The notes below the pieces were generated by a model. The model was not told where the DNA came from and did not search any database. It saw only the letters and a list, made by a program, of their open reading frames with translations. Shown here piece after piece: positions 12,976 through 47,511 of a stretch of 64,000 bases of DNA. Position numbers and translations under genes: made by a program. The first letter of the stretch is position 1, and each line of letters opens with the position of its first letter. Source of the stretch: an uncultured Actinomycetes bacterium (GTDB lineage: Bacteria; Actinomycetota; Thermoleophilia; RBG-16-64-13); contig CAVPLM010000005.1 of the NCBI GenBank assembly GCA_963706025.1, positions 960,001 through 1,024,000 on the forward strand, read 5' to 3'.

Positions 12976-12985
12976 CTATGACCTC

Positions 12986-14839: not shown

Positions 14840-14852
14840 GTCGGCTTCCGCT

Positions 14853-17897: not shown

Positions 17898-18191
17898 TCA
17901 ACCCCCGGCCGTGGGAAGAAACACCGTGACCAGATCGCCGTCGTGAAGCGACGTGTCCAAACGCTCCGCGAAAGCGATGTTCCTACCATTCACCAGCACA
18001 TTGACCCCGGGCCTGACGGAACCCGGCTGCGCGTATATGGTCTGCGTCTGCTCGGGCGTGGTGCATATGAAGCCCAAGAGATCGCCGGCGGTGCGCGCCC
18101 GGGCAAGATCGAGGCTCATCTCCGTCTGCCGAAAGACGTCCTTCAAGCTGCCAAGAAACCTCACCGTCACTTTGCCGTTGGCGGCTTCCAT
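17898..18191 (-). CDS. MoaD/ThiS ubiquitin-like sulfur carrier
   Basis: VLVNGRN..DGD..PTAGG ending in Gly-Gly. Confidence 0.88.
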   Translation of the reverse strand: MEAANGKVTVRFLGSLKDVFRQTEMSLDLARARTAGDLLGFICTTPEQTQTIYAQPGSVRPGVNVLVNGRNIAFAERLDTSLHDGDLVTVFLPTAGG

Positions 18192-18208
18192 CGATACGCT
18201 GATCGCTC

Positions 18209-19027
18209 CTAATCGCTTCGGGATCCGGCATCAGGTGGGGTCATCGTAGTAGCGCCGTCCGAACCAGGATACCACCCGTGAGCCGGGGTATGCGCCGGGC
18301 TGGCCGTATCGTCCTCGGTCGTGGCCAGCCCCAGATATGCCCTCCTGACGTGCTCGTTGTCTTGCAGGTGCTTGGCGTCGTCCGCCAGAGTGATGACGCC
18401 CGTCTCCATGACGTAGCCCTTGTCGGCGATCTTGAGAGCCATGCTGGCGTTCTGCTCTATGAGAAGGATCGAGACACCCTCAGTGGCGATGCGGGCGATG
18501 ATCTCCCCCACTTCCTGCGTGACCAGGGGCGACAGACCAAGAGAGGGTTCGTCCAGCAGTAGGAGTTTGGGGGCGCACATCAACCCTCTGCCGATGGCGA
18601 GCATCTGCTGCTCCCCACCGCTCAAGGCCGAGGCGAGCCGGCGCGCTGCCTTTTTCAACACGGGAAAGTACTCGTAGATCTTCTCCAGATCGCTGGCTAT
18701 ACCGGCCTTGTCCCTTCTGAGATAGGCGCCGGTGAAGAGGTTGTCGTAGACACTCATTTCCAGAAACAGCCTCTTGCCTTCTGGAACGTGACCGATGCCC
18801 AACCCCACCACTTTGTCCGGTTTCATCCCATCGATTCTCTTATCCTCATACCAGATCTCCCCCGCCGAAAGCCGTACCAGACCCGAGATCGCCTTCAAGC
18901 AGGTGCTCTTGCCCGCGCCGTTGGACCCGATAAGAGTGGTGATGCTCCCGGCGGCGACTTCCAGAGAGATCCCCTTGAGCGCCCTGACCCCGCCGTAGCG
19001 CACCTCTACGTTCTTCAAGCTGAGCAT
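18209..19027 (-). CDS. livF: HAAT (Liv) ABC transporter ATP-binding subunit
   Basis: GSNGAGKS, VPEGK, LSGGEQQM, LDEPSLGL. Confidence 0.88.
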   Translation of the reverse strand: MLSLKNVEVRYGGVRALKGISLEVAAGSITTLIGSNGAGKSTCLKAISGLVRLSAGEIWYEDKRIDGMKPDKVVGLGIGHVPEGKRLFLEMSVYDNLFTGAYLRRDKAGIASDLEKIYEYFPVLKKAARRLASALSGGEQQMLAIGRGLMCAPKLLLLDEPSLGLSPLVTQEVGEIIARIATEGVSILLIEQNASMALKIADKGYVMETGVITLADDAKHLQDNEHVRRAYLGLATTEDDTASPAHTPAHGWYPGSDGATTMTPPDAGSRSD

Positions 19028-24810: not shown

Positions 24811-25122
24811 CTAGCCCCCCGCGATCGGCGGGAATATCGCGACCTCGTCTCCGTCGTGGAGCGTGGCGCCGGCGCCACCCAAGAACGCGATGTTGTGACC
24901 GTTGAGCAAGACGAGGAACCCTTCCCTGATGCCTCCGGACTCGTCAAGGAGCCCATGTCTTTGCTCCGGAGTGGTGCAGAGTGCCTCGAGGAGCCGCCCT
25001 ATGTCCGCCGCTTGCCCAATGGCAACGCGGGACTCCTTCTGCCCGAAGAGGTACCTGAGCCCGGCGAACAGCCTGACCGTGACGCCGGTGTCGTGACTGT
25101 TCTCGCCCGCCTGCATGGTCAT
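24811..25122 (-). CDS. MoaD/ThiS ubiquitin-like sulfur carrier
   Basis: VRLFA..LLNG..DGDEVAIFPPIAGG. Confidence 0.88.
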   Translation of the reverse strand: MTMQAGENSHDTGVTVRLFAGLRYLFGQKESRVAIGQAADIGRLLEALCTTPEQRHGLLDESGGIREGFLVLLNGHNIAFLGGAGATLHDGDEVAIFPPIAGG

Positions 25123-26981
25123 TCTCTACGGCTCAGAGCCGTCGAGGGCAGGCCATCGATCGCCACCACGGTGGGCTCGTCGAGGGGCGCCGCGATCCCC
25201 AGTTCGCCGAGCTTCTCTGAAGTCGGTCTGCCGTCAGAGTCCCAACCGCGAAGCCCGTAGTACTCATCGAGCATCGGCAGCAGATCGACCACGCGGCCTT
25301 TCGAGGGACCTTCGGCGACCGGCTCGAAGAGCAGGCGCGGCGGCAAGGTATCGTCCGCACGGGTGAAACCGGCGCGGAGATTGAAAAGCCGCTCTAGGTT
25401 CCAGATACGCTCACCCGTCTCCAGGAGCTCGCGCGTTTCTACAGTCTCGCCCGTGACCGCGGAGAGCAGCCGAGCGAAGTGGTCTTCCTTCATGACATAG
25501 GCGGCGAACTTACACTCCAGAAGTGAGTCGAGCACGGCGTTGAGGTTCTGCAGGTGTATGAGCAGGGCGGCCTTACCGTGGACGGCGAAGCGGTCCACCA
25601 GCTCGGGCACACCGAAGATCTCCGGCCCCAGCATGTTGGCCCGCGCGTGACACGCGCCCCGGTTAGAGGTGGCGAAGGCTAGGCCTTGGCCGCTCATCCC
25701 ACGAGGATCGAAGGCCGGGATCTCGAGTCCCTTCACCTGCATTGCCAGCTCGGGACGCCCATAGCGGACGGCCAGGCGGCGACTGCCCTCGGCGAGCTCA
25801 TCGCCCAGGTCGCGCCGGTAGGCGGTGGCAGAGATGAGTTCGCGTAGCGCTGCCGCATCCCCGAAGCGCGGTCCGCCCCTCAGCACGCCCTCTTCGGCAA
25901 GCTCCATCGCACAGGCGATGGTGGCTCCCATAGTCATGGTATCGAGGCCCAAGCGGTTGCAGGCATGGTTGGCCTCCACGACGGCGCCGAGGTCGCCGAC
26001 ACCGCAGTCGGGACCCAACGCCCAAAGGCTTTCGTACTCGGGACCCTGAGTCGCGCCGCTCGCCGAGCGCGTGCGCCGGGCGCAGCCGATGAAGCAGCCG
26101 GTGCAGGCGGCGCGTTTCCTCACGAAGTCGGTGCGGAGCGCCTCGCCGCTGACGAGCTCGGCCGACTCGAACCGCGAGGCGCGGAAGTTGCGGGTCGGCA
26201 GAGCTCCCACTTGATCGAGAACGTTCAGAAGCACCGAGGTGCCGAACTCGGGTAGAGCCTGGCTGGTGATGGGGTTCGTCCTCAGCAAGGCGCGGGCCTC
26301 GGACACCACGAGGTCGAAGCTCCGTCTGTCTGCCGGCCCGGGCGACAAGCCGCTGCCCTCACCTAGTACCACGGCCTTGAGGAGCTTGGCGCCCATCACG
26401 GCGCCCAGACCGCCGCGGCCGATCTGTCGACCGCGATTGTTGGCGACCGAGGCGAATAGGACCCCTCGCTCCCCGGCCGGGCCGATCACGGCCGCTTCTA
26501 CGCGGCCGTGAAGCTCCCGCAGCCGGGCGAGCGTGGCCGGCACGTCGAGACCCCACAACTCCTGGGCGGGAAGCACGCGTATGCCATCGTCACCGATGAA
26601 GAGGTAGGAGGGTTCGCCGCAGGCACCGGTGATGACAAGGTAGTCGAGCCCGAGGCGACGCAAAGCCATACCGAAGCCGCCACCTGAGTTCCCGTCGAAG
26701 ATCGTACCGGTGAGCGGGGAGCGGGAACTGAGGCTGTAGCGCGCGGCCGAGGGCGCGCCGCTACCGGTCAGTGGTCCGATGGCAAATACGAGCGGATTGC
26801 CGGGCGCGAGCGGCTCCACTTCGTACATGCCTTCGCTCAGCAGCAGGTACGCGCCCAATCCTCGACCGCCAACCACCGCGCGCCGAACGTGCGGAGGCAG
26901 CTCCTCGCGCGCCGCGCTGCCCGCCGACAAGTCCACGCGCAAGCCGCGGAGCGCATGGCGATCCGTCTCCGTCACAGTCAT
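25119..26981 (-). CDS. aor: Second tungsten aldehyde:ferredoxin oxidoreductase family protein
   Basis: RSPLTG, GRGGLG, CTGCFIGC, PEYES, GACH, YY..RGWD. Confidence 0.92.
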   Translation of the reverse strand: MTVTETDRHALRGLRVDLSAGSAAREELPPHVRRAVVGGRGLGAYLLLSEGMYEVEPLAPGNPLVFAIGPLTGSGAPSAARYSLSSRSPLTGTIFDGNSGGGFGMALRRLGLDYLVITGACGEPSYLFIGDDGIRVLPAQELWGLDVPATLARLRELHGRVEAAVIGPAGERGVLFASVANNRGRQIGRGGLGAVMGAKLLKAVVLGEGSGLSPGPADRRSFDLVVSEARALLRTNPITSQALPEFGTSVLLNVLDQVGALPTRNFRASRFESAELVSGEALRTDFVRKRAACTGCFIGCARRTRSASGATQGPEYESLWALGPDCGVGDLGAVVEANHACNRLGLDTMTMGATIACAMELAEEGVLRGGPRFGDAAALRELISATAYRRDLGDELAEGSRRLAVRYGRPELAMQVKGLEIPAFDPRGMSGQGLAFATSNRGACHARANMLGPEIFGVPELVDRFAVHGKAALLIHLQNLNAVLDSLLECKFAAYVMKEDHFARLLSAVTGETVETRELLETGERIWNLERLFNLRAGFTRADDTLPPRLLFEPVAEGPSKGRVVDLLPMLDEYYGLRGWDSDGRPTSEKLGELGIAAPLDEPTVVAIDGLPSTALSRRE

Positions 26982-27219
26982 GGTGTGAGTATAGCCGATA
27001 GGCTTGGTCGCTCCCGCCGGCAGTGGCCCCCCTCTGCCCACCCGGAGGCGAGGCAGGCACCGGCCCCCGGTCAGGCCGCGTCGGGGTGGACGGCACAAGA
27101 AACGCCCCGCGAGGGGCAGGATTCTTGCCCGGCCTTCCCGTAGCGTGATACGCTGAGATACACCCTTGCGAGCATGGCAAATCGATCCATGCCGCGCTAT
27201 TCGATGGGGGTATTATCCA

Positions 27220-29862
27220 ATGGCAAGAAAGAATCGAGCGGTCAGCGAGCAGCCCGTGACCGCCCAAGAAGATGTATGGATCCATACGTCTTGCGGAGGC
27301 TGCTACGCCCAGTGCGGGATCAAGGCTCACCGGGTCGACGGTTTGATCGTGGGCCTGGAAGGCAATCCCGAGACGCCCGCCGGCAGCGGCCGGATGTGCG
27401 CAAAAGGTACCGCCCAGCTGATGATGCTCTACGACCGGTATCGGGTGAATTATCCGGTCAAGAGGACCAACCCGGAAAAAGGGGTAGGGGTCGATCCCAA
27501 ATGGGAGCGCATCTCCTGGGACGAAGCCATGGAGACGATCATATCGAAGTTCAAGAACCAGAAGGACCCCAGGGGGACCTATTTCCAGGCCACCACGGTC
27601 CAGACCAGCGAGATCCGTTTTGCCGTTCCCGCCTTCATGCGCGCCTGGGGTTTCAAGAACTACTGGGTATCGGGGGGCGGCCTCTGGTGCGGCAACGGCG
27701 CTCACTTCATGAACGGGATCATGCACGCCGCCTGGTCGATCATCCCCGATTGGAACTACAACAAGTACACGATCTACTTCGGGTGCTCGAAGGGGCACGG
27801 AGCGGGGCATGCCGCCCTGCAGAGCGCCCAATGGGTGGCGGATGCGCGGGCCAGGGGGATGAAAGCGGTGGTGTTCGACCCCTTCCTCTCTACCCAGGCC
27901 TCGAAGGCGCACGAGTGGGTGCCCATCCGCGTCGGAACGGACGGGGCCGTTGCGCTGGGCATGATCAATGTCATCCTGAACGAGCTCGGCATCTGGGACG
28001 CCCACTACCTCAAGCTGAAGACGAACGCCCCCTACTTGATCCAGCCCGACCAGCACTACAAGAGAGATCCCGAGACCAACAAGCCGCTCATCTGGGATCC
28101 CACTGACGGCCGGGCGAAGACCTTCGACGATCCGTCGATCAAGGACTACGCCCTCGAGGGGACCTTCGAGGTCGAGGGCACGCCCTGCACGCCTGCGTTC
28201 CAGCTTCTGAAGGAGCACGTCAAGAAGAACTACCCCCTGGAAAAGGTGGAGAAGATCACCAGCGTACCGGTTTCCACCATCCGCCGGGTCGCCACCGAGT
28301 TCGCCGAGGCGGCCGAGATCGGCCGGACCATCACCATCGACGGCAAGGAGCTCCCGCTGAGGCCGGCGGCCGCCATCTTCTTCCGGGGAAGTCAGGGCCA
28401 CGTGAACTCGGGCTGGAACTGTCTGGAGATCGACCTGCTGAACCAGATCGTCGGAGCCGCCGACGTACCCGGAGGATCGATGGGCCACGGGCCGCCGGTC
28501 TCCTACGGTCATCCCGACACCGGCAAGCCTGAGACGATACCGTACCCCTGCCCTGACGGCCTCATGGTCGTCAAAGGTTGGGTCTACGATCACAAGCCGT
28601 ACCCGCTCAGGGAGCCGGCGCCTCCCAAGCGGCTCGACCTGCAGGACCTGTTCCCCTGCTCGGTCTACAACGCCTTCACCATCTGCTCACCAGAGTGGGA
28701 GAAGTACCGGAAGGACTTCAACATCGACTACGAGCCGGAGATCATGATCAACTTCGGTTCCAACTCGGTGATGACGATGGCCAACGCGCACGAGGTCACC
28801 GAGAACTTCCTCAAGAAGTTCGACTTCGTGCTGTCGTTCAACATCTTCCAGAACGAGTTCACCGAGGCCGTCGCCGACATCGTCCTTCCTGACGCCAGCT
28901 TCCTCGAACGGTACACACCATGCGTGACCTTCCCCTCGACGTTTTGCCATCCCACCGGGATGGACCACTGGGTGTGGCAGATCCGCCAGCCGGTCGTCGA
29001 GCCGCTCTACGAACGCCGCGACTTCAACGAGGTGATGCTGGAGATCGCCAAGCGGCTCGGTGTTCAGGAGAAGTACTTCCAGGCGATCAACGATCTCATC
29101 CCGGTGCGGTACGGCGGGGAGATGTCAGAAGAGTACAAGCTCGATCCAAGCAGCGACTACTCGTGGCAGGACATATCGGACCGGGTCCTCAAGGACAGGC
29201 TGGGACCGGAGAATGGGCTCGAAGCCCTCAAGAAGACCGGCCTCGTGAAATGGCCGACGAAGGTCGAGGAGATGTACTGGCGGTGGTTCACGCCCGTTCG
29301 AGTGCCCATCTACTTCGAGTTCTTCCTCGAAAGTGGGGAGAAGCTGGGGAATCTCCTGAAATCGTTCGGCCGGGAGGACATGGCCGACCTACGGTTCTAT
29401 ACGCCTTTGGCCGAGTGGTTCCCCTGCCCTTCGCACGAGGATGAGAACCCCGATTTCGACCTGTGGGCCTTCAGTTGGCGGCCTTCGTTCCACACTCAGT
29501 CCTCGACCCAGAACAACCCCTGGCTGGACGAGGTGTCGGTGAACGATCCCTTCGTCTACCTGATCCAGATCAACGCCGCGACAGGCAAGGAGAAGGGGCT
29601 CAAGGACGGGGACGTCGTATGGGTCGAGAACCCCGATGGAAAGCGGATCAAGGGTCCGGTGAAACTCGCCGAGGGAGTACACCCCGAGCAGTTGGGGATC
29701 GCCGGTTGCCACGGCCACTGGGCGCGAGGCACGCCCATCTCAAAGGGAAAAGGCCAGTTCTTCGACGATCTCATAAGCCCTGACGTCAAACACACCGACT
29801 CGCTCACCCAAGGGACGGACGCCTGCGTCAAGGTCAAGATCTACAAGGCCGAGGGGAGGTGA
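27220..29862 (+). CDS. Mo/W-bisPGD (DMSO reductase family) catalytic subunit without Tat signal
   Basis: CGGCYAQC..CAKG, RVNYPVKRTNP, ISWDEA, TDGAVALG, ADIVLPD. Confidence 0.9.
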   Translation: MARKNRAVSEQPVTAQEDVWIHTSCGGCYAQCGIKAHRVDGLIVGLEGNPETPAGSGRMCAKGTAQLMMLYDRYRVNYPVKRTNPEKGVGVDPKWERISWDEAMETIISKFKNQKDPRGTYFQATTVQTSEIRFAVPAFMRAWGFKNYWVSGGGLWCGNGAHFMNGIMHAAWSIIPDWNYNKYTIYFGCSKGHGAGHAALQSAQWVADARARGMKAVVFDPFLSTQASKAHEWVPIRVGTDGAVALGMINVILNELGIWDAHYLKLKTNAPYLIQPDQHYKRDPETNKPLIWDPTDGRAKTFDDPSIKDYALEGTFEVEGTPCTPAFQLLKEHVKKNYPLEKVEKITSVPVSTIRRVATEFAEAAEIGRTITIDGKELPLRPAAAIFFRGSQGHVNSGWNCLEIDLLNQIVGAADVPGGSMGHGPPVSYGHPDTGKPETIPYPCPDGLMVVKGWVYDHKPYPLREPAPPKRLDLQDLFPCSVYNAFTICSPEWEKYRKDFNIDYEPEIMINFGSNSVMTMANAHEVTENFLKKFDFVLSFNIFQNEFTEAVADIVLPDASFLERYTPCVTFPSTFCHPTGMDHWVWQIRQPVVEPLYERRDFNEVMLEIAKRLGVQEKYFQAINDLIPVRYGGEMSEEYKLDPSSDYSWQDISDRVLKDRLGPENGLEALKKTGLVKWPTKVEEMYWRWFTPVRVPIYFEFFLESGEKLGNLLKSFGREDMADLRFYTPLAEWFPCPSHEDENPDFDLWAFSWRPSFHTQSSTQNNPWLDEVSVNDPFVYLIQINAATGKEKGLKDGDVVWVENPDGKRIKGPVKLAEGVHPEQLGIAGCHGHWARGTPISKGKGQFFDDLISPDVKHTDSLTQGTDACVKVKIYKAEGR

Positions 29863-29867
29863 GCTGT

Positions 29868-30497
29868 ATGACGCGCTACGGTTTTGTGATCGATCTGAAG
29901 CGCTGCTACGGGTGCTATTCGTGCCAGGTGGCATGCAAAGCCGCGAACCACACCCCGCGAGGCATCGACTGGGCCCGGTGCGTCCCTGCCGAGACGGGAA
30001 CGTACCCGACCTCTCTCCGCCAGATGCTGCCGCTCGTCTGCCAGCAGTGCAGAGAGCCGGCCTGCAAAGAGGTGTGTCCCACGGGGGCGACGACCCAAGA
30101 CGAGAACGGGATCGTCCACGTGGACCCGAAGCTCTGCATGGGCTGCAAAGCCTGCATCATGGCCTGCCCCTACGGGGCACGGCAGACGGTGAGCGGTTGG
30201 CAGACCTACTTCCCCGATGCCGAGGGTGAGCTCGACCCATACGAAGCTCATGCCAAGAAGGAATGGGAGAAGAAGTACGGCTACGGTATGGCCACCAAGT
30301 GCGACTACTGCATGGATCGTGTGAACGAGGGGCGTCAGCCCGCTTGTGTGGAAACCTGCCCGGCAAAGGCTCGCTACTTCGGTGATCTCGACGACCCCGA
30401 AAGCGAGGTCTCGATACTCATCAGACGTGAGTATGGATTCCAGCTCAACCCCGAGTTCGGAACCGATCCAGCCTGCTACTACCTACCACCGAGGTGA
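29868..30497 (+). CDS. 4Fe-4S electron-transfer subunit (NrfC/DmsB-like)
   Basis: Four ferredoxin Cys motifs; PACVETCP..ARYFGD. Confidence 0.92.
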   Translation: MTRYGFVIDLKRCYGCYSCQVACKAANHTPRGIDWARCVPAETGTYPTSLRQMLPLVCQQCREPACKEVCPTGATTQDENGIVHVDPKLCMGCKACIMACPYGARQTVSGWQTYFPDAEGELDPYEAHAKKEWEKKYGYGMATKCDYCMDRVNEGRQPACVETCPAKARYFGDLDDPESEVSILIRREYGFQLNPEFGTDPACYYLPPR

Positions 30498-30501
30498 CGA
30501 G

Positions 30502-31416
30502 ATGCAGCTGAAAGCTCAAACCAAGTGGGGTTGGATGATCGCCGCGTATCTCTTTCTCGCGGGACTCGGCGGTGGCGCATACGTGACCGGTGTCGTTACC
30601 GATTTCTTGGGCGAGGATTGGAGCTCCCTCTCCAAGATCGGTGTCACTCTCGGATTCCCCTGTGTTTTCGTGGGAACGATGTTCCTTATCACCGACCTGG
30701 GGACACCGGCCAACTTCTGGCGGGCCTTCATGCGGCCCCGCACCTCCTGGGTGGCCAGGGGGACGATCATCATCATGACCTTCATGGTCATCAGCATCAT
30801 CCACCTTGGCCTCTGGGTCTGGCCGTTCCATGTGCTGGAAGATGCCGAGACCGCGCGTTACGTTCTCGGAGTGGTGGGCGCCGTCTTCGCCTTCGGGACC
30901 ATGATCTACACCGGGCTCCTCCTGGGGGCCAACCGGCCGATCGCCTTCTGGAGCACCGCGTTGGTGCCGGTCATGTTCCTCGTCTCCGCTTTATCGACAG
31001 GAGCGATGGCCGTCATCCTGGCCGGGACCATCGGGGGATTGGAGCACGCCGGGCCAATATCGAGGCTGGCACGGTTCGACATTATCTTGCTGGCCCTCGA
31101 GGTAGTGGTGATCACCATGTACCTGCAGGCAACTCACCGGGTGCCCGAGTCGCGCGAATCGGCCAGACTGGTGCTGACCGGCAACGTCGCCCCGCTCTTC
31201 TGGCTCGGGGTGGTCCTCTGTGGGCTGATCATCCCGCTCGTCCTCGAACTGGTAGGCGTGTACGCCTTGGAGGGATCCGGCGCGACGGCCGTTACCGCCG
31301 TCGCCGCGGTCAGCGGATTGTTCGGCGGTCTGTGCCTGCGGCAAGTCGTGCTGTCCGGCGGCGTCCAGGCCCCGTTGCGAGCCAGCCGGTTCGAATTCGG
31401 CCTGCCGATCGTCTGA
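30502..31416 (+). CDS. NrfD/PsrC-like membrane anchor
   Basis: WGWMIAAYLFLAG, DLG.P, SW..RG, YTG, W..P motifs. Confidence 0.9.
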   Translation: MQLKAQTKWGWMIAAYLFLAGLGGGAYVTGVVTDFLGEDWSSLSKIGVTLGFPCVFVGTMFLITDLGTPANFWRAFMRPRTSWVARGTIIIMTFMVISIIHLGLWVWPFHVLEDAETARYVLGVVGAVFAFGTMIYTGLLLGANRPIAFWSTALVPVMFLVSALSTGAMAVILAGTIGGLEHAGPISRLARFDIILLALEVVVITMYLQATHRVPESRESARLVLTGNVAPLFWLGVVLCGLIIPLVLELVGVYALEGSGATAVTAVAAVSGLFGGLCLRQVVLSGGVQAPLRASRFEFGLPIV

Positions 31417-31994: not shown

Positions 31995-33128
31995 TCACGC
32001 CCCCTCGAACGGGAACGTGTACGGCAGCTTCAGCTCGTCGCGCAGGGTCACCAGCTCCTGCCGGAGACCGGCGTCGACGGGCACGCCCTTGTCTTTGCGT
32101 TCCTGCCAGGCCAGGTACTCTTTCTCGCCGCAGGTGTAGATGCGCTCCTTGCCCGGAGCCCTGGTGGACGCGCGCAGGGCCCGCAGGATATCGCCGGTGG
32201 TCTTCTTGAAGGCCTCGAGATCGGTGAAGCAGTCGATGTCGATGGCCATGAAGAAGTGGCCGAGCGGAATGGGGATGTCCCTACCCTGCTCGTCCTTGCC
32301 CCCGAGTTGCTTCAGGAACGCTCCCTGTGACAGGGCCGCCGACAGGATCTCGACCACCGTGGCGAAGCCGTAGCCCTTGTACCCGCCGGTCTCCTCCGTC
32401 AAGCCGCCGATGGGGGCCAGCGCGGCCGCTCCCCGGATGAGATCCTGAAGGATCTGCACGGAATCGGTGGCCGACCTGCCTTCCCGGTCGATGACCAGGC
32501 CCTCCGGGCAGTCCTTGCCCTCGCGGGCCCACTGCTCGATCTTGCCCCGCTGGATGACCGAGGTGGCGTAGTCGTTGGTGAAGGGGAACGGCTCGTCGGT
32601 GGGCATGGCGAAGACCAGGGGGTTGGTGCCGAGCATGTTGTCTACCCCGTGGGTGGGAGCGATCGAGGGACGGGCGTTGGTGCCGGTCAAGCCGATCATG
32701 CCGGCGTCGACCGCCATAAGCGAGTAGTAGGCGGCGAAGCCGTAATGGGTGGAGTTGCGGGCCACCACCATGCCCAGACCGTGCTCGCGGGCCTTGTCGA
32801 TGGCCATCTGCATGCAGCGTTTGCCGATGACCATGCCCATGCCGTCGTGGCCGTCCACAACGGCCGTCGCTTTGCAGTCGCGGACCACCTCGAACCGCGT
32901 CACCGGGTTCTGGATCCCACCCTTGACGATGCGGTCGTAGTAGATGGGCTTGAGCCGGCCGACGCCGTGGGAATCGATGCCGCGCTTGTCGGCGCTGATG
33001 AGGACGTCGGCACAGACCCGAGCGTCCGCGTCGGGGACGCCCACCCCCTTGAAGACGTCCACCATGAACGCCTCCAAGACATCGAACGGCACCCAGGAAC
33101 GACCCGAAGATCTGTCCGTTGTCGCCAT
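31995..33128 (-). CDS. Ldh-2 (malate/L-lactate/ComC/AllD family) oxidoreductase
   Basis: GIDSHG, NSTHYG, LGTNP, GYKGYG; SD AAGGAGG. Confidence 0.9.
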   Translation of the reverse strand: MATTDRSSGRSWVPFDVLEAFMVDVFKGVGVPDADARVCADVLISADKRGIDSHGVGRLKPIYYDRIVKGGIQNPVTRFEVVRDCKATAVVDGHDGMGMVIGKRCMQMAIDKAREHGLGMVVARNSTHYGFAAYYSLMAVDAGMIGLTGTNARPSIAPTHGVDNMLGTNPLVFAMPTDEPFPFTNDYATSVIQRGKIEQWAREGKDCPEGLVIDREGRSATDSVQILQDLIRGAAALAPIGGLTEETGGYKGYGFATVVEILSAALSQGAFLKQLGGKDEQGRDIPIPLGHFFMAIDIDCFTDLEAFKKTTGDILRALRASTRAPGKERIYTCGEKEYLAWQERKDKGVPVDAGLRQELVTLRDELKLPYTFPFEGA

Positions 33129-33239
33129 GTCGCCCTCCTTCCCGGCCCGGTGACGGCTCCACAGTAGCAGACCAGGACGCGATGCCGGCGGCGGTGGAAG
33201 CAGCCGTCCTCGCCCCATCCCGCCGACACAGACCCGGCG

Positions 33240-33740
33240 CTAGAGCTCGATCTCCGCCGGCGCCGGCATCGCGTCCGCGAACCACTCGGTCTCGCTGAAC
33301 TCAGCGCTCGCGATATCGTCGAGCGGCATCTTGAGATACTTCCCGCGGGCCTCCACCGCCACACTGCCGTCCTCCAGCACGATCTCACCGGTACCCTCGA
33401 ACAGCCGGGTCGAGTCGCGGGTGATGCGTCCGATCGCCTTGATCTCCCGGTCGATCGGTACCGGCTTACGGAACTTCACAGTCAGCTCGACGGTAACGCC
33501 CCAGGTGTGCGAATCGGCGATGTTGATGGCCCGGCCGATGGTCTCGTCGAGGATCGCCGAGGCCACGCCGCCGTGCAGGCGCCCGGGATAGCCCTGATGC
33601 TCCGCCTTGGGCTGAAAGACCCCGACCAATTCGCCGTTCTCGAGTTCGAAGAAGCGCGCCCCGAGGCCGGCCACGTTCTCGACTCCGCAGACCAAACACA
33701 TGCGGCTCACGTTCTGGACGGCGCGAACCTTGTGGTTCAT
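33240..33740 (-). CDS. PaaI/hotdog thioesterase
   Basis: CLVCG..N..GL, GYPGRLHGG..LDE. Confidence 0.85.
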   Translation of the reverse strand: MNHKVRAVQNVSRMCLVCGVENVAGLGARFFELENGELVGVFQPKAEHQGYPGRLHGGVASAILDETIGRAINIADSHTWGVTVELTVKFRKPVPIDREIKAIGRITRDSTRLFEGTGEIVLEDGSVAVEARGKYLKMPLDDIASAEFSETEWFADAMPAPAEIEL

Positions 33741-33818
33741 ACAGGATTCCCTTCGTGCTCGCGTGACTGCGCAGACAGACCCGGATGCGCAGCCCAGCCT
33801 ACCACCAGAAGGCGGCGG

Positions 33819-34382
33819 TCAGGAGCCGGTGGGCGTCGTGGTGTGCGCCGGCGCCCACAGGCCCAGGCTCTCGGCACGAGCCTTCCGCTGCGCTTCCCTC
33901 AACTGCGACTGGCGGGCGAGATTCGGAGGGTATTCATGGGCTCGAGCGTACCCATCGCGCACCAAGCGCTCGTTGACGAGCACCTCGCCCGCCCACACGT
34001 AGGCGAGCAGGCGCCCGAAGTCATCGCGCTCGTCCACATCCAGCTCCAGATACAGCGGACCCGACGCAAGCAGCTCCGCGTTGTGGATCGAGGCCTCCTC
34101 GCCCATGTACTCGGCCGCCGCATCAGTGTGGGCGATCTCCGGCGTGTCGATCCCGATGTACCGTACCCGCTCCTCGCTACCGTCGGGCATGCGCACCCAG
34201 ATGGTATCGCCGTCGACGACCTCGACCAATTCCACTTCGACGCGCCCCGGCGCGACGGTACCGCTTCCCTGGGACGGAGGCTGGGTCGCCGGCTCACCCC
34301 CACACCCGGCGGGCAGGATTACGGCCGGCGCCGTCAAGAGCACGGCCAGAACTAGGGCCGCGCCGGCCGGCCGCCGTTTCAC
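33819..34382 (-). CDS. Thermonuclease (SNase) lipoprotein
   Basis: VVDGDT, VRYIGIDTPE, D.FGRLLAYV, GLW; lipobox PAGC. Confidence 0.9.
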   Translation of the reverse strand: MKRRPAGAALVLAVLLTAPAVILPAGCGGEPATQPPSQGSGTVAPGRVEVELVEVVDGDTIWVRMPDGSEERVRYIGIDTPEIAHTDAAAEYMGEEASIHNAELLASGPLYLELDVDERDDFGRLLAYVWAGEVLVNERLVRDGYARAHEYPPNLARQSQLREAQRKARAESLGLWAPAHTTTPTGS

Positions 34383-34434
34383 GATCGCTCCAGCGCCGGC
34401 GCGGGCGCCGCTCTATGCCCGCGACGATACCCCA

Positions 34435-34930
34435 CTACCAGCCCAGGGTCCCCGGGTCTCCCTTGAAGGGTCCGACGATGTCGGAGGTCACCCAACCCCC
34501 ATAGAAGCCCCCCGGCTGCGGCTCCACCCGCTCGCCGTCCACAAGGCAGGCGTCCATGTCGTGCGCGTAGATGGCGATATGACCCCGGATGGACGCAAAG
34601 GGCTCGGTCGGTTCGGGGTAGCTCCAAGCGGCGTTCTCCGCCCTCCGGTCTCCGACGCACGATGGTGTAGTAGACCGCCTGGCCCTTCCACTCGCAGATG
34701 GTCCGCCGGGAAGAGGGTTGGAAGTGCTCCGTACGCACGTCTTCGCGGGGCAGATAGTATGTGGGAGGATGACTGGTCTCGAGCACCCGTTTGGCTCCCA
34801 GTGAGTCGGCGATCACCACTCCGTTGAAGATCACCTGGATATGCCGGCGGCTGTCCTCGACCCTCGGTGGCCGGGGGTAGTCCCACACCGACTCCCGGCC
34901 GGAGCCGGGCTCGTCACCATAGGTAGTCAC
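34435..34930 (-). CDS. DUF427 protein (frameshift near 34655)
   Basis: RESVWDYPRPP, VLETSHPP, CEWKG; the shifted frame ends FYGGWVT..VGPFKG.PG..GW. Confidence 0.8.
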
Positions 34931-34943
34931 GATCCCCTCCCAA

Positions 34944-35610
34944 TCACTCGAGCCCGACGACGGCCGCAGCAATCTCGGTCGCCGTCATCCCGCCCATGCG
35001 GACATCTCCGATACGGCCTTGAGGATCGATGAAGAAAGCCGTCGGAACCCCCTCCAAGCCGTAGCGAGCGCCTATCTCGTCGTTGGAGTCCATAAGAACC
35101 GGCAGTTCGCTCTCCGCTCCAAGTACGGCCCGAGGCGTCCTCCGTGGTGTCCCAGACCGCTACGATCAGCAACCCAGTGCTCTCCTTGTTGTCTCGATAG
35201 AACCTATCGAGTTCGGGAACTTCGTCCCGGCACGGGCCTCAGCCGCTCGACCAGAACACGAGAACCAGCGGCCGCCCGGCGAAGGAGTCGAGCGAGACCT
35301 CCATCCCGGAGAGTGTCACCCCGCTGAACTCGGGAGCCGGCGGCCGGTCCGAATGGGTCTGGGTAGTCGTCGTGGGCGCGGCAGTGGTCGTCGTAGGCGC
35401 CGCCGTGGTCGTGGGCGCGACCGTCGTCGTGGGCGCCAACGTGGTCGTAGGCGCCGCCGTGGCTGTCGTCTGCGCGTACGAGGTGCTCGAGCCGCCGTCG
35501 ATAGCCGTGGGCTGAGTGTCGCCGCAACCCAGGACAGCGGTCACCAGCGCAAGGGCGACGATGGCAAGTGAGGACCGCACAGAAACGTTCCCGACACTCC
35601 TAGGACTCAC
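34944..35610 (-). CDS. TlpA/redoxin-family lipoprotein with in-frame UGA (putative selenocysteine, UxxC)
   Basis: Lipobox VLGC, APEFS..LVFWSSG-TGA-GPCRDEVPEL; after one indel near 35130 it continues PVLMD..YGLEGVPTAFFIDPQG. Confidence 0.8.
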
Positions 35611-36866
35611 GAGACCCCCCTCTCCGGCGCCGGTTTCTTGCGAGTCACGACATATATTGTAGCCGCGATGGTACCCACCAAGGGGAACAGGGCCAGAAGC
35701 AGATAGCCGGATAGATAGCCCGAATCGCCGACAGAAGTGCCGTAGGCGTCCAGCAGCACCCCAAAGAGCCAGGGGGCAAAAAGCGTCCCCACCAGGTTCG
35801 TCAGATTCAGGAAACCGGTGGCCGGTCCCACCTGCTCGGGCCGAGCCACGATCTCGGGCACCGAGCCCATGATGGCCGGAAACACGGCCATCGTCAGAAA
35901 GCCCGCGATCACCACACCCGCGATCACCAGTCCCAGACCGGGCGCGACGGGAACCAGCGCGGTCGCGGCGAACATCACGGCCATTCCCGAAAGGAGGACG
36001 AACGGCTTTCCCCAGCGGGCCATGGCCGCTGCCCCGGCCACATTGCCGAGCATCTGCGCCACCCCGATCCCGGCGGTCAGGTAAGCGGCCACGGCCAGAC
36101 TGGCCCCCCGCTGATCGTTCAGGAACGCCGGGGTCCAGGCCAGCATGCCTACGACGATGGCCATCACCCCGATGTTGATCACTGCCAGGAGGATCAGACG
36201 GCGATTGACCGCCACGGCCCCCACTCCCCGGGCCAAGGCCGAGAACGAGATCATTCCTTCGGGGTGCCGAGGCTTGGCCCGGATCGCCTTCTGAGCCAGA
36301 GCCACCAAACCGATCACGATAGCGATGGCCGCTGCCGCCAGGAATACCCCTCTGTACCCACCGGCCTCATGGATGCCGGGCATGATCAGCAGGGCCGCGA
36401 CCACCCCCAGGCCATGGCCGGTGCCGAATACCCCCAGAGCGCGAGCGTGATAGCGCGGCCCGATGCTCTGTGCCATCAGAGGATTGCTCACCGGGATCAC
36501 GGTAGATCCGCCGGCCCCTTGTAGGAACCGGGCGACAAGGAACCAGGGGTACGAAGCGCTGAACGCGAAGAGGATCGATCCCAGCGCATAGACCCCGGCC
36601 CCCACGACCAGAGTCCGTCCGCCCCACCGCGCTCCGGCCAACCCCATGGGGATCGCGCCGATGGCAAAGGTGACCATGAAGATGGAAGTCAGAAACCCGA
36701 TCTGGGACGAGGAGAAGGAGAACTGTTCCTCCAGATCCTTGCCCACAATGGGCATCAGGGACAGCGCGATGCTGTTCATGGCCATGAACAGCATCAGCGA
36801 CAGAGACAGCGAATCGGCCCCCCGCCGGGTATCGAGGGAAACGCCGTAGACTGCGCCTTCCTGCAT
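35607..36866 (-). CDS. MFS transporter
   Basis: About 12 TM segments, GARWGGR, ARFLQG. Confidence 0.88.
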   Translation of the reverse strand: MQEGAVYGVSLDTRRGADSLSLSLMLFMAMNSIALSLMPIVGKDLEEQFSFSSSQIGFLTSIFMVTFAIGAIPMGLAGARWGGRTLVVGAGVYALGSILFAFSASYPWFLVARFLQGAGGSTVIPVSNPLMAQSIGPRYHARALGVFGTGHGLGVVAALLIMPGIHEAGGYRGVFLAAAAIAIVIGLVALAQKAIRAKPRHPEGMISFSALARGVGAVAVNRRLILLAVINIGVMAIVVGMLAWTPAFLNDQRGASLAVAAYLTAGIGVAQMLGNVAGAAAMARWGKPFVLLSGMAVMFAATALVPVAPGLGLVIAGVVIAGFLTMAVFPAIMGSVPEIVARPEQVGPATGFLNLTNLVGTLFAPWLFGVLLDAYGTSVGDSGYLSGYLLLALFPLVGTIAATIYVVTRKKPAPERGVS

Positions 36867-37028
36867 AGTGCCCCTTCGCCTCTGTCCCCGACCGCCGGCC
36901 CCTGCGCACTTGGACCCAGGGGCACTTCAGCATATCAGGTGGCGATCAGTGCCTTCTTCGCGCAGGAGGGGAGCGCGTGGGGTAGCCACCGTGGCGGAGC
37001 AACTCAAGGCTCCGCGGTCGCTGCAGCG

Positions 37029-38187
37029 CTAGTCCAGCATCTGCGAGGCTTTCGCCATCTCCTGAGACACCGGGATCTGCTGGGGGCAGGCCTCTACACA
37101 TTGGCCGCACTCAGTGCACGCAGAAGCTGGAGCAGTGTGACCGGCGCCCAGCTCGAACTTGTAGGTCGCAAGCTCTGCCGCGAAATCGTCGAATAGCGCC
37201 GCATTGTTGACGCAACCCAGTATGAGAGGGATGTCGATACCCTCGGGGCAGGGCAGGCAGTAGCGGCACCCGGTGCAGTCGACCGCTATGCGCGCCTGGT
37301 ACGCTTCCCGGACCTGCCCGATCAAGGCATGCTCTCCCGGGCTCAGGGATCCCGCCTGGCCCTGCGCGGCGATCTGCACATTGGCGACGACCTGCTCCAT
37401 GGCCGACATCCCGCTCAGCAGCAGGCTCACCCGGGGATCGTCCCACACGAAGCGGAGCGCCCATTCCACCGGCGCGCGCGTCACCGCAGCCGAATCCCAC
37501 AGAGCCTGCACCTCCCCGGGGGCGCGGCCGGCCAGACGTCCCCCCTTGAGCGGCTCCATCACGATCACTCCAAGACCGCGGCCGGCCGCGTACTCGAGCC
37601 CCGCTCTACCCGCCTGGTAATCCACATCCATGTAGTTGTACTGGATCTGGCAGAAGTCCCAGTCGTACGCATCGACGATGGGCGCGAACGCCGGCGGGTC
37701 GTCGTGATAGGAGAAGCCGGCATAGCGGATCCTCCCGTCGGCCCTGGCGGCATCGAGGAACCCGAGCACGCCCAGGTCGACCATCTTGGCCCAGCTTCCC
37801 GCGCTCAGACCGTGGACCAGGTAGCAGTCGATCTGACTCGCTGCGCAGCCGCTCCAGTTGACCGGCGAGGATTCTGTCCATGTCCGCGCGGGAGCCGACC
37901 ACCCACGTGGGGAGTTTAGTGGCAAGCAGCACCTTCTCCCTATAGCCGCCGGCCAGCGCTCCACCGACGAAGGCCTCGCTCTCACCCGGACGTTCGAAGC
38001 TGGTCCCGTGATAGGGAAAAGCGGTGTCGACGTAGTTGACCCCGTGGTCGATGGCGTAGTGCAGCATCTCGGTGGCGAGGGGGACATCGATGCGCTCGCG
38101 GCGTCCATCGAGGACAGGCAGGCGCATGCAGCCAAAGCCGAGGATCGATACGCGCTCGCCGGTCTTCCCGAGATCACGGTACAGCAT
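37029..38187 (-). CDS. Aldo/keto reductase with C-terminal Fe-S motifs (frameshift near 37835)
   Basis: SILGFGCMRLP, DTAFPYH, MEPLKGG, CTGCRYC..CP, CTECGQC..CP. Confidence 0.88.
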
Positions 38188-38189
38188 GG

Positions 38190-38409
38190 CGCTCCCTTTG
38201 TGCGTCATTCGTGCAGACGTGTCGGGTTCCCCGGAGAAAGAATCCAGCTTCTGGACCAGACTCTCGATCAGGTCTTCGCGCTCTCTCAAGTGGTGCTTGA
38301 GTTCTCGGGAATCGGTGTTGGCGATCTCGAAGAGCATCGCCTTTCGATATCTCTCGATGACGAAGCGGATGACCTCGATCTCCTTCATGCTCAGCGGCAC
38401 GTCAATCAT
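38190..38409 (-). CDS. Small helical hypothetical protein, in frame with the AKR start
   Basis: SD AGGAGG; EIANTD..L..RE..L pattern; no stop before the AKR ATG. Confidence 0.5.
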
Positions 38410-38481
38410 CTCAGCCTCCTTTTTGACGGGTCCCGCGTTGTTACGGCACTGAACCAGGAGCCGCTCCCCAGACCGCTCGGC

Positions 38482-39225
38482 CTACGATCCCACCCTCCTG
38501 CGGGGGAAACGCGACCTTCGCACCTCGTCCCGGACGAGTGCCGCCAACTCCTCGGGGTCATCCAACACCGGCGAGCGAACATCTCCTCCCATCGCGATGA
38601 GGACGAGGCAGCCGTCTTCCACCTTCACTTCATGGACGGCCTCGAGCGGCACCACATCGGGGCTATCGGTGTCCACGCCAAACAGCACCGCTTCCGTGGT
38701 CAACTGGATCTCACCGTTGTCCCAGACCACCCGCTCCATGCCCCGGAAGGCCCGCATGTCCTTCTCCCACAGGTCCCGGTGACTTCCGATCGCGCGGCCG
38801 TACCTTCGGGCGATGATCTCGCTGGTCCCCTTGGCGATGCTCCATCCGACATGATGGTTGGTCTCCGCGAGCCGGCGCAGATCTGCTCCGTCGATGACGA
38901 TCGCCTCCACGGGCTCCGTCGTCTCGCCGGTGGCGATGTAGCGGTAGGGCTTGGTCACGACAGCCCAACCAAGCTCCTCGCCGGCCGTTACCTCGTCCAG
39001 AACGCCGTCTGGGCCATCCAGCGTGTGCACCGTTACGATCACCTTGCCGGCCAAGAGCAAGTAGAGCCGGTCGGCCTCGGCACCCTCCTCGATGAGTCGG
39101 GTACCCGCCGGATAGTCCTCTACCCTGGAGATCTGTGCGACCGCCGCCAGCTCATCCGGACCGAGTCCGGCGAAGATGCTGAACTCCCGCAGTCGATCGA
39201 GTGGTTCGATCATGTCCCCTCCCAA
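38482..39225 (-). CDS. Cyclic-nucleotide-binding domain protein
   Basis: LIEEG..LYLLL.G.V..GEELG. Confidence 0.8.
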   Translation of the reverse strand: MGGDMIEPLDRLREFSIFAGLGPDELAAVAQISRVEDYPAGTRLIEEGAEADRLYLLLAGKVIVTVHTLDGPDGVLDEVTAGEELGWAVVTKPYRYIATGETTEPVEAIVIDGADLRRLAETNHHVGWSIAKGTSEIIARRYGRAIGSHRDLWEKDMRAFRGMERVVWDNGEIQLTTEAVLFGVDTDSPDVVPLEAVHEVKVEDGCLVLIAMGGDVRSPVLDDPEELAALVRDEVRRSRFPRRRVGS

Positions 39226-46684: not shown

Positions 46685-47511
46685 TTACCTTTCTACGAAG
46701 ATGACCCCCAGATTGAGGCTGTCGACGAGGTCGACCTGCTGCGCGACCGGCTTGTAGCCGGGCGCGCTCACGACCAGGTCGTAGCGACCGGGCGCCAGGC
46801 CGTCGAAGATGAAGTCGCCGTAGTTGTTCGTTGCGGTGTCGCCAATCTTGGTGCCCTCCGCCTGCAGGATGACGATCGCACCCTCGGCGCAGTCGTCGGT
46901 GTCTTTGTAGGCCACGGTTCCGCCCAGAAAGGCCTTGGTCCAACGGTGGAGGTTCTTGTACCAGACGCGCGGGTTGGTCCCCCAGTCCGCCTGATACGCC
47001 TCCAGACCCTCCGCACTGGCCTTCACCACCATCTCGTCCTCATCACCCAGGACGAGTTTGAGCGCCCCGGTGGGGCACACCTGGGTGCAGCGGGTCTCGG
47101 TCCACCCGCCGTCGATCAGGTGTGCGCAACCGGTGCACTTCTGGGGAAGGCCGGCCTCCTCGTTCCAGTAGATGACGTCGTAGGGGCAACTGCCAACGAT
47201 CTGCTTCTGACCCTTGGCTTTCTTGGGGTCGATGATCACGAGGCCGTCTTTGCGCTTGTGCACGGCGCCGTCGGGAGTGAGGCAGGGAGCATCGTCGCAA
47301 TGCTGGCAGGGGACGGGCAGGTAAGCCACCTGCACCATCGGGAACTGGCCTCTCTCCTTGCGCTCGATGTCCATCCAGCGCTGGCCGGACCAGGGCTGGG
47401 CGACCGAGTAGCCCTTGAAGTCGTTCCCTACATACTCGTCCTTGCAGGCCAGGAAGCAGTTGTTGCAGTCGTGGCAGAGGGCGACGTCGACACCATGTTC
47501 CACTTTTTCAT
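46685..47511 (-). CDS. bthL: Pyrogallol transhydroxylase small subunit-like Fe-S protein (frameshift near 47490)
   Basis: MKKWNMV../CHDCNNCFLACKDE, CPY..WNEE, C-terminal TNNYGDF domain. Confidence 0.8.

Follow-up and report, generated by a model that had tools for sequence, protein, structure and literature searches.

The window, that is, the whole 64-kb stretch of DNA that was analyzed, carries on its minus strand an open reading frame that runs from a GTG at 35610 to a TGA at 35241-35239. Both the sequence and the list of open reading frames place its end there, as the initial annotation had reported. The gene that we describe extends beyond this TGA to a second one, and its features, together with those of the gene upstream, are as follows.

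35607-36866, minus strand: upstream MFS transporter gene (Pfam MFS_1, 1.5e-43), a linkage that is not conserved
35625-35615, minus strand: Shine-Dalgarno-like run GGAGAGGGGGG, preceding the GTG start
35608-35610, minus strand: GTG start codon, in a 4-nt overlap (GTGA, 35610-35607) with the stop TGA of the MFS gene (35609-35607)
35524-35610, minus strand: predicted signal peptide and lipobox V-L-G-C, residues 1-29, with Cys29 at 35526-35524 (from the translation)
35362-35475, minus strand: Pro/Thr-rich tether of APTTT units, probably disordered (from the translation)
34980-35340, minus strand: ResA/TlpA-like thioredoxin-fold domain, residues 91-210 of the read-through protein P0003 (Pfam and PDB matches)
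35239-35241, minus strand: TGA, putative selenocysteine (Sec) U124 at the first position of U-G-P-C (opposite the first CxxC cysteine of homologs)
35230-35232, minus strand: TGC, resolving Cys127 of the UxxC site (invariant column of alignment A4)
35214-35229, minus strand: stem-loop of the initial annotation, 5 bp with a 6-nt loop, probably not a SECIS (spacing, energy, register)
35193-35211, minus strand: best SECIS candidate, an 8-bp stem with a GUU loop (conservation, fold energy, bSECIS criteria)
35133-35134, minus strand: frame break, one surplus base between GCC (A159) and CGG (R160) (DNA alignment, relatives)
35043-35045, minus strand: CCG, conserved loop proline P189 of the GVPT motif (invariant column of A4, P184 in L001 numbering)
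34944-34946, minus strand: TGA, true stop of the gene (from the sequence)

The same start is called in a relative that is 95% identical (P0008). A genome scan gave 19 loci, with the genome of the window not among them, of which the closest three (L001, L002 and L003) are the orthologs referred to below. Both the lipobox and the APTTT tether described in the initial annotation are there. A lipobox cysteine can be read in all four proteins (VLGC in the window, LAAC in L001, IGGC in L002 and ITGC in L003), and the four are predicted to carry an export signal and a membrane anchor. The tether is a tandem repeat with a period of 18 nt and 5.1 copies (35369-35462, TRF), and the equivalent Thr-rich stretch of L001 has pLDDT values below 60 in an AF2 model. 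The domain that follows is interrupted by the frame break; it matches the Pfam families AhpC-TSA (5.1e-18) and Redoxin (4.5e-16) as well as Thioredoxin_2. A scan of positions 33000-38600 for promoters and terminators found none.

The translational coupling to the MFS gene that had been proposed earlier stands as far as the 4-nt overlap is concerned, but the pairing is not conserved in L001-L003. L001 does have an MFS gene upstream, but the two are not orthologs (26% identity over 137 aa, E 0.006), and the neighborhoods in L002 and L003 differ from that of the window; a conserved MFS partnership was therefore dropped. Immediately downstream of the gene in both L002 and L003 lies a gene for CcdA (DsbD_TM), and L002 has CcmE, CcmF, CcmH, CcmB and a CcmC-like gene upstream. 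No CcdA or ccm genes are present in the 64-kb window and none were found in L001. The redox partner and the substrate proposed below are therefore drawn from L002 and L003 only.

The in-frame TGA and the hairpin behind it

The position of the TGA within the domain is as the initial annotation had placed it. In a sequence search of the PDB (79 matches at E<=1e-3; best 2yp6, E 2.1e-16) it falls opposite the leading Cys of the WCGPC motif of ResA/TlpA/Etrx-type proteins with solved structures, and in the 19-sequence alignment A4 it stands opposite the first Cys of CxxC. Comparison of homologs for Cys or UGA at this site, which had been suggested as a check, found TGA at the equivalent codon in the three nearest orthologs, L001 (60% identity), L002 and L003 (50%), and TGT or TGC in the remaining 16 of the 19 loci, all more distant. 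In L001-L003 a single frame continues past the TGA to PVLLD..GVPTAV..D and then to a normal stop, giving a complete thioredoxin fold. The column of the loop proline, which in thioredoxin folds is cis, is invariant in 19 of the 19 sequences of A4. Downstream of the TGA, dN/dS is 0.22-0.65 in six pairs (0.31 for L002-L003), with dS saturated for several pairs. The UGA of L001-L003 is conserved ahead of an open frame under purifying selection; for the window copy to follow the same path, one base must be skipped.

A hairpin at 35211-35193 begins 27 nt past the TGA, with its loop 35 nt past it. It lies within a 26-nt block (35211-35186) that is identical in the window, L001, L002 and L003 (alignment A1), and all 8 of its pairs are kept in all 4 sequences in the consensus fold. 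The energy of the hairpin is -8.4 kcal/mol (z -3.6). Among degenerate codons whose amino acid is invariant, those within the hairpin are identical in 8 of 8 cases, as against 4 of 38 elsewhere (Fisher p=1.9e-6). Exact matches to the hairpin occur in 3 of the 19 loci, which are the TGA-bearing ones only. Because it never varies, the hairpin provides no compensatory base-pair evidence. When the whole 47 nt after the UGA are folded, the result is no better than for shuffled sequences (z -0.08); what stands out is the 19-nt hairpin alone.

The criteria for a bacterial SECIS (bSECIS) set out in PMC13188914 are a loop of 3-9 nt, a stem of 4-16 bp, a G in the first two loop positions, a spacing of 16-37 nt and an MFE <= -7.5 kcal/mol. 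The hairpin at 35211-35193 satisfies all of those given there, although at 35 nt the distance from the UGA comes close to the maximum of 37. SECIS prediction thus arrives at this hairpin in place of the stem-loop singled out by the initial annotation. That stem-loop exists, at 35229-35214 and 9 nt after the TGA, but as a SECIS it was rejected. With a loop that starts at 14 nt and an energy of -6.2 kcal/mol it falls outside the spacing and energy limits quoted from the same source, and 15 of 200 shuffles fold equally well. Its register is lost in one of the four sequences, where 4 of the 5 pairs are broken without compensatory change. We conclude that the hairpin at 35211-35193 is the best candidate for the real SECIS. 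A scan of positions 34900-35700 against Rfam at E<=10 found no relevant match, the one hit being an irrelevant snoRNA (E 7.7).

We also looked for selenocysteine-related genes beyond the locus itself. There are no tRNA genes, tRNA-Sec included, in the 64-kb window or in L001-L004, and the Pfam families of the Sec machinery (selA, selB, selD) are absent from the 116 ORFs of the window and from the 31 ORFs of L001-L003. A scan of the window for coding regions interrupted by TGA yielded no other accepted selenoprotein gene: four same-frame TGA junctions looked coding-like on both sides and were all interpreted as neighboring genes or as antisense ORFs. The same scan skipped the TlpA-like gene itself because the frame break weakens the downstream signal. 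A TGA also occupies the catalytic Cys codon of an MsrA gene in L001, 8 kb from the TlpA-like gene; the hairpin after that TGA is no better than shuffles (z +1.14). In L002, a PF11823 Se/S-carrier domain is present. Both observations hint indirectly at Sec use in the lineage.

The surplus base and the competing readings

The stretch 34944-35610 is 667 nt long, or 3x222+1. At the break the sequence reads GCC-T-CGG, and the codons downstream sit in the +1 frame. The in-frame reading past the TGA yields ...WDTTEDASGRTWSGERT..., without PVLMD or GVPT, and PVLMD..GVPTAFFID is found in the +1 frame. The continuation of the fold claimed in the initial annotation is therefore correct as to the motifs, which are present downstream, but these do not lie in one frame with the rest: the base at 35134/35133 must be skipped. 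An alignment of the DNA with L001-L003 places a 1-nt gap at exactly this position. In P0010, a relative with 95% identity, ...WDTTEDARAVLGAES... runs through in a single frame, with EDARAVLG across the break. The spot is crossed in frame by the three orthologs and by 5 of 7 C-terminal database fragments, namely those that span it.

In its assembled form, the window copy cannot yield the complete protein. A single +1 break also interrupts each of four further genes of the window that are otherwise intact, making at least five breaks in all, and the likeliest cause of the break at 35134/35133 is therefore an assembly error. The organism itself probably produces the intact protein. With at least five single-base +1 breaks in the window, gene-level claims from this assembly need to be checked against relatives.

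The selenoprotein family could also be real while the window copy is a recently inactivated allele, with a genuine surplus base and a C-terminus that is garbled after residue 159. The break is, after all, present in the sequence as given, and GCC-T-CGG is not a long homopolymer. However, the gene has a single lesion and its downstream frame is fully conserved, the 66-residue query taken from it being 95% identical to P0010. Moreover, each of the five breaks found in the window (5/5) is a +1 surplus of a single base in a gene that is otherwise intact, and no nonsense lesions were noticed among the ORFs examined. Such a pattern is more readily explained by a technical bias toward insertions than by natural decay, and we regard inactivation as rather unlikely. 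We consider it probable that a selenoprotein gene occupies this locus and encodes a thiol-disulfide oxidoreductase of the ResA/CcmG/TlpA type that is exported and anchored by lipid, the surplus base being most likely an assembly error.

If the TGA were an ordinary stop, the gene would be a truncated or split thioredoxin-like gene with an untranslated remnant as its downstream half. Gene callers do treat the TGA in this way (P0006, P0008, P0020), and the failure to find Sec machinery in the 64-kb window or in the ORFs of L001-L003 would agree with it. Such a stop, however, would have to fall on the identical catalytic codon in 4 of 4 orthologs that are just 50-60% identical, and would leave a 123-residue product without the entire active site. 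The open downstream frame with dN/dS below 1, the retention of the loop proline and other fold residues, and the conservation of the hairpin at the nucleotide level also speak against it, and we consider this explanation highly improbable. Hardly any weight can be given to an alternative code, or a suppressor tRNA, that would insert Cys, Trp or Gly at the UGA: some read-through is needed and the Sec machinery was not found in the window or in the L001-L003 ORFs, but TGA terminates many ordinary genes of the window (the MFS gene, an Ldh_2 gene and the TlpA-like gene itself), the four other candidates for coding TGA interruptions were all dismissed as above, the hairpin matches the SECIS model, and the TGA lies at a redox Cys, as in the selenoproteins cataloged in PMC13188914.

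Fold, known relatives and database fragments

The fold was examined in the AF2 model of the L001 ortholog. Its pLDDT is above 90 over the domain, and U118 lies just before a helix spanning residues 119-135. In this model of the ortholog, the predicted fold is of the ResA/TlpA thioredoxin subtype, with the CxxC site at the start of helix 1. The best structural match of the model is ResA of B. subtilis (PDB 1st9, 2f9s), with a TM score of 0.89-0.90 and an rmsd of 1.7 A over about 135 residues. ResA, an extracytoplasmic apocytochrome c reductase, is likewise membrane-tethered and has a CxxC site; its electron donor is CcdA, and CcdA is adjacent to the gene in L002 and L003. The differences are that the protein described here would have Sec in place of the first Cys, and a lipoprotein anchor where ResA has a transmembrane helix. 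With the NCBIfam model for ResA (NF002854), the score is 70.2 bits where 170 would be needed, so the window protein is not an equivalog.

Etrx2 of S. pneumoniae (PDB 2yp6, 4hqz) is the best match by sequence in the PDB, with the E value given above. It is a surface lipoprotein with a thioredoxin fold, titled in its PDB entry as an exposed lipoprotein thioredoxin, and has WCGPC at the aligned site, i.e., Cys where the window gene would have Sec. Etrx proteins feed an extracellular methionine sulfoxide reductase.

Three further NCBIfam models, all for selenoproteins, fall far short of their cutoffs: NF041054 (ResA-like WAxxUGC motif protein) scores 43.1 against a cutoff of 300, NF041057 (Rcas_1661 family thioredoxin-like (seleno)lipoprotein) 21.7 against 190, and NF053656 (TUGYCR-motif redoxin), for which the L001 protein was scored, 21.3 against 100. 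The motif here is FWSSG-U-GPC or FWASW-U-xSC, in contrast to the WAxxUGC and TUGYCR of those models. Because none of these cutoffs is reached, the gene can be assigned no more narrowly than to the broad TlpA/redoxin fold family. The three selenoprotein models do establish Sec-containing ResA-like proteins and thioredoxin-like selenolipoproteins as recognized kinds.

PMC13188914 already catalogs TlpA/redoxin-type selenoproteins with a UxxC site. As described there, these families have AhpC-TSA, Redoxin and Thioredoxin_2 domains, with Sec as the first residue of UxxC and a SECIS hairpin inside the coding region soon after the UGA; our proteins resemble them on all these counts. Compared with the families as described there, the present proteins differ in coming from Actinomycetota-type MAGs and in having a lipobox with a Thr-rich tether and an invariant hairpin of their own. 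Given that such UxxC selenoproteins and selenolipoproteins are already cataloged, we consider the finding confirmatory rather than surprising.

In the protein database, members of this clade occur only as N- and C-terminal fragments. The N-terminal fragment ORFs P0006 and P0008 end at ...FWSSG, and seven C-terminal fragment ORFs (P0010-P0016, 70-95% identity) include two that begin right after the active site. In those relatives for which only the protein is available, the stop after FWSSG is probably TGA as well. A search for representatives with the L001 protein returned 58,976 relatives at E<=1e-3 and 8 at E<=1e-30; because most of the top matches are multi-domain, it adds little beyond the fragments P0020 and P0158. 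Gene callers thus end the gene at the TGA and the database holds pieces of it, which bears out the expectation that standard annotation would miss it. These results support the core of the initial proposal, namely a selenoprotein gene, cut short by gene callers, whose product is a TlpA-like lipoprotein that is exported and has a UxxC site.

Proposed mechanism and significance

In the mechanism that we propose, the hairpin at 35211-35193 would act as a bacterial SECIS and recruit SelB with Sec-tRNA(Sec), and the UGA would therefore be decoded as selenocysteine. The preprotein would be exported and lipidated at Cys29, and the Pro/Thr-rich tether would hold the domain outside the membrane. There the U-G-P-C site would reduce disulfides of exported proteins via a selenenylsulfide and would itself be re-reduced by a CcdA-type membrane electron shuttle. 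For the orthologs in L002 and L003, the likely substrate would be apocytochrome c.

More tentatively, these genes may belong to a distinct, Actinomycetota-type clade of surface selenolipoproteins. Gaiellales-like genomes would then have Sec at the CcmG/ResA position of cytochrome c maturation, between a ccmA-like ATPase gene and ccdA, with a SECIS that is frozen across 50% protein divergence. Literature searches on selenoprotein/CcmG, Thermoleophilia selenocysteine and selenocysteine/TlpA, assessed largely by title, found no paper on such a clade.

Automatic annotation routinely splits selenoprotein genes in two. The sharply defined SECIS hairpin could be used to find further members of the family. 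Recognizing the gene returns an extracytoplasmic redox enzyme to the inventory of the organism and flags the lineage as a selenium user. If the proposed clade is real, cytochrome c maturation or extracellular thiol repair would be selenium-dependent in soil and sediment lineages.

The gene and its active-site TGA

The gene begins at a GTG codon at 35610 on the minus strand, has a 4-nt overlap with the TGA stop of an MFS transporter gene upstream, and runs for 123 codons to the TGA at 35241-35239. The N-terminus of the encoded TlpA-like protein carries a signal peptide and a lipobox V-L-G-C (Cys29), followed by Thr/Pro-rich APTTT units (TRF: 18-nt repeat, 5.1 copies, 35369-35462), as the initial annotation had described. 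The TGA is preceded by ...LVLVFWSSG and followed by codons for G-P-C-R-D-E-V-P-E-L. When the read-through translation was compared with PDB sequences using phmmer, 79 matches were found at E<=1e-3. The best is pneumococcal Etrx2 (2yp6, E 2.1e-16); other best matches are a Geobacter thioredoxin-family protein (3kcm), StoA and ResA. The TGA faces the first Cys of WCGPC/WCPPC in these alignments, in exact agreement with its earlier assignment to the first Cys of the CxxC motif. Elsewhere in the window TGA is an ordinary stop, ending the MFS gene, the Ldh_2 gene and the TlpA-like gene itself.

A genome-collection scan gave 270 pattern matches, which resolved to 19 homolog loci. The three closest have TGA at exactly the same codon (U, selenocysteine):

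Ortholog loci with TGA at the active site
L001: MAG, 60% identity, FWSSG-U-GPC
L002: Actinomycetota MAG, 50% identity, FWASW-U-PSC
L003: Gaiellales MAG, 50% identity, FWASW-U-ASC

In all three, the frame continues unbroken past the TGA, through PVLLD/PVLID and GVPTAV/AVPTAV, to a normal stop. The other 16 of the 19 loci, from Chromatiaceae and Flavobacteriaceae (Winogradskyella among the latter), carry a Cys codon here, TGT or TGC. At the sequence level, TGA in three loci versus a Cys codon in 16 is a classical Sec/Cys pair. With the hairpin codons described below left out, dN/dS after the TGA ranges from 0.22 to 0.65 across the six pairs, dS being saturated in several; L002-L003, the closest pair, has a value of 0.31.

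Protein databases contain this clade in pieces, consistent with the expectation that standard annotation would miss the gene. A near-length search of a 5.8-billion-protein collection yielded five proteins out of 447 candidates. N-terminal fragments of 123 residues that stop at FWSSG make up two of these; one is from the window itself and the other, 95% identical, from a different source. The closest protein of full length has 50% identity and a WCGPC active site. A search with the C-terminal piece retrieved seven proteins among nine candidates (70-95% identity). Each is a short ORF confined to the region beyond the active site, and two of them start with (M)PELDRFYRDNK. Working from these protein sequences, we infer that the stop codon of such relatives is also TGA.

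Table 1 of a 2026 review (PMC13188914) lists among predicted prokaryotic selenoproteins a Prx-like thiol:disulfide oxidoreductase (PF00578, UxxC), which it attributes to Kryukov and Gladyshev 2004, and a redoxin family protein (PF08534, UxxC). The window gene is predicted to encode a UxxC TlpA/redoxin-type selenoprotein, of a kind already known. NCBIfam models also exist for a ResA-like WAxxUGC protein and for a thioredoxin-like (seleno)lipoprotein; against both of these, and against the ResA model, the TlpA-like protein stays far under the cutoff. It can therefore be placed in the broad fold family, outside every named subfamily compared. Judged by titles, our literature search found no paper on Sec-containing CcmG or on Thermoleophilia selenoproteins.

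A candidate SECIS element

We aligned a segment of the four genes reaching from 21 nt ahead of the TGA to 89 nt past it; over its full length the columns average 82% identity. A 26-nt block, 35211-35186 in the window, is identical in all four and has divergent flanks. It codes for L-D-R-F-Y-R-D-N-(K). Considering only degenerate codons that specify the same amino acid in all four genes, the codons are identical at 8 of 8 positions in the block versus 4 of 38 in the rest of the domain (Fisher p=1.9e-6). The first 19 nt of the block (35211-35193) fold into a hairpin with 8 bp in the stem and GUU in the loop; the loop starts 35 nt past the TGA, and RNAalifold keeps all eight pairs in all four sequences. 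Folded alone, this hairpin reaches -8.4 kcal/mol (z -3.6), an energy matched by one of 200 shuffles. The window contains a single copy of the exact 19-mer, which among the 19 loci is confined to the three that carry TGA.

The initial annotation had placed the SECIS at a different stem-loop, 35229-35214. The two are compared below with the bacterial consensus as given in PMC13188914.

Consensus bacterial SECIS features and the two hairpins (35211-35193; 35229-35214)
Loop of 3-9 nt: GUU, 3 nt; 6 nt
Upper stem of 4-16 bp: 8 bp; 5 bp
G in the first two loop positions, often then G or U: G first; G second
UGA-to-loop distance of 16-37 nt: 35 nt; 14 nt
MFE <= -7.5 kcal/mol: -8.4; -6.2

The stem-loop at 35229-35214 lies outside the consensus in both spacing and energy, and in the consensus fold four of its five pairs are broken in L002 without compensatory change; a hairpin is possible at this site in L002 with the register shifted by one. 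We therefore reject that assignment. Because the hairpin at 35211-35193 never varies among the four sequences it shows no covariation, and Rfam has no match for the region. Synonymous-site conservation and the fit to the consensus model make it a candidate SECIS. Together with the orthologs, it supports the central proposal of the initial annotation, a hidden UxxC selenoprotein.

A frame break in the window's copy

The span 34944-35610 is 667 nt, or 3x222+1. In-frame read-through of the TGA gives ...WDTTEDASGRTWSGERTAGSYGLQRRD..., without the second half of the fold. The continuation of the fold past the TGA had been proposed in a single frame; GPCRDEVPEL is indeed in frame, but PVLMD, YG and GVPTAFFID are in the +1 frame, and one base must be skipped. 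Skipping it between GCC (35136-35134) and CGG (35132-35130) yields a 221-residue protein (P0003), improves the Pfam AhpC-TSA match from 1.8e-10 (profile positions 4-71 only) to 5.1e-18 (4-121 of 124) and gives a Redoxin match of 4.5e-16. The DNA alignment with the three orthologs has a single-base gap at the skip site. All three orthologs, and all five of the seven C-terminal fragments that reach the site, are in frame across it; the 95%-identical fragment has ...WDTTEDARAVLGAES... here, precisely as a one-base skip predicts. Thus, the lesion is specific to the window sequence.

At least four further genes in the window share this defect, each shifting to the +1 frame past its break and being otherwise intact:

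Other frame-broken genes in the window
34972-34435, minus: DUF427 gene, +1 break near 34657
38409-37032, minus: aldo/keto reductase with 4Fe-4S tail, +1 break near 37835
10430-8303, minus: S15 X-Pro dipeptidyl peptidase, +1 break between 9560 and 9400
63345-62685, minus: corrinoid (B12-binding) protein, +1 break near 62950-62930

The frame offsets in the five broken genes are 517, 415, 205, 913 and 394 nt, all 1 modulo 3, and all five breaks, on the minus strand, are in the same direction. We noticed no nonsense lesions in the window ORFs examined. For five single-base surpluses on a contig of ~1.2 Mb we consider a technical insertion bias likely and gene decay a good deal less so; the window's copy is probably frame-broken by assembly error. 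A single TAG (62685-62687) separates the broken corrinoid gene from a same-frame URO-D/MtaA-like methyltransferase gene. We take this as ordinary gene adjacency, because the URO-D match begins ~25 codons into the downstream ORF.

Genomic context and proposed function

No tRNA genes were found in the window or in L001 to L004 (the last a further homolog locus), and no SelA, SelB or SelD domains among 116 window ORFs and 31 ORFs flanking L001-L003. Four other coding-TGA candidates from a scan of the window were not judged real. In L001, 8 kb from the TlpA-like gene, an MsrA gene (~1336-2031, plus strand) has a TGA at 1453-1455 in place of the catalytic Cys (FAFG-U-FWG), aligned with that of GCFWG in solved MsrA (E 8.5e-48). 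The fold downstream of this TGA is no better than shuffles. Sec-MsrA is a listed selenoprotein family (PMC13188914), and this gene is a candidate second selenoprotein in that MAG. In L002, an ORF at 15854-16603 (plus strand) matches PF11823, a putative Se/S carrier domain (2.6e-12); it lies ~5 kb downstream of the Sec ortholog. Both are indirect hints, from relatives, that the lineage uses selenocysteine.

The window also encodes two aldehyde:ferredoxin oxidoreductases (15492-17366 and 25122-27212, both minus). Directly upstream of one is a small ThiS/Urm1-like gene (24814-25125); the second has one too, farther upstream and separated from it by a 4Fe-4S ferredoxin gene (17901-18230). A NuoE/NuoF-like and 2Fe-2S/4Fe-4S set is nearby (12214-15488), and there are two molybdopterin oxidoreductase clusters (27157-31413 and 46688-50039). 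This inventory points to an anaerobic lifestyle. A full-length bacterial serpin (6490-8163, plus; Pfam Serpin 2.6e-110) has ~170 extra N-terminal codons in open frame.

We modelled the intact L001 ortholog with AlphaFold2 using the 19-sequence alignment. pLDDT is >90 from residue 81 onward and low over the first 80 residues, which are Thr-rich. Sec118 directly precedes a helix (119-135). Foldseek against the PDB placed B. subtilis ResA first (TM 0.89-0.90 on target, rmsd 1.7 A over ~135 residues), followed by Etrx2, DsbE-like proteins, mycobacterial secreted DsbE/DsbF, StoA and TlpA. Invariant in the alignment are the two active-site positions, the GVPT loop proline and one glycine. The protein has a ResA/TlpA-like fold, a UxxC active site and a lipid anchor.

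The gene neighbourhoods of the window and L001 are unlike those of L002 and L003. In the window, the MFS gene is upstream and DUF427, nuclease lipoprotein and thioesterase genes are downstream; no ccdA or ccm genes occur within the 64 kb. The upstream MFS genes of the window and L001 are not orthologs, which argues against a conserved MFS partner. In L002 (~980-12240), the Sec ortholog closes a cytochrome c maturation (system I) cluster comprising two CcmE, CcmF, CcmH, CcmB, a CcmC-like gene, a BlaI/BlaR-like pair and an ABC ATPase; a CcdA-type membrane protein gene (DsbD_TM, 6.8e-18) is directly downstream, followed by FdhD. L003 (~80-7010) has the same gene order across the scanned part, including the adjacent CcdA.

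The TlpA-like selenoprotein would act as a lipid-anchored extracytoplasmic disulfide reductase, cycling via a selenenylsulfide, and selenocysteine may confer a catalytic advantage. Its redox partner would be a CcdA-type shuttle that recharges it, and in L002-type genomes its substrates would be cytochrome c precursors. The gene position in L002 is that expected of a CcmG/ResA-type apocytochrome c reductase. A possible extension is a selenium-dependent CcmG-type step of cytochrome c maturation in Gaiellales-like Actinomycetota.
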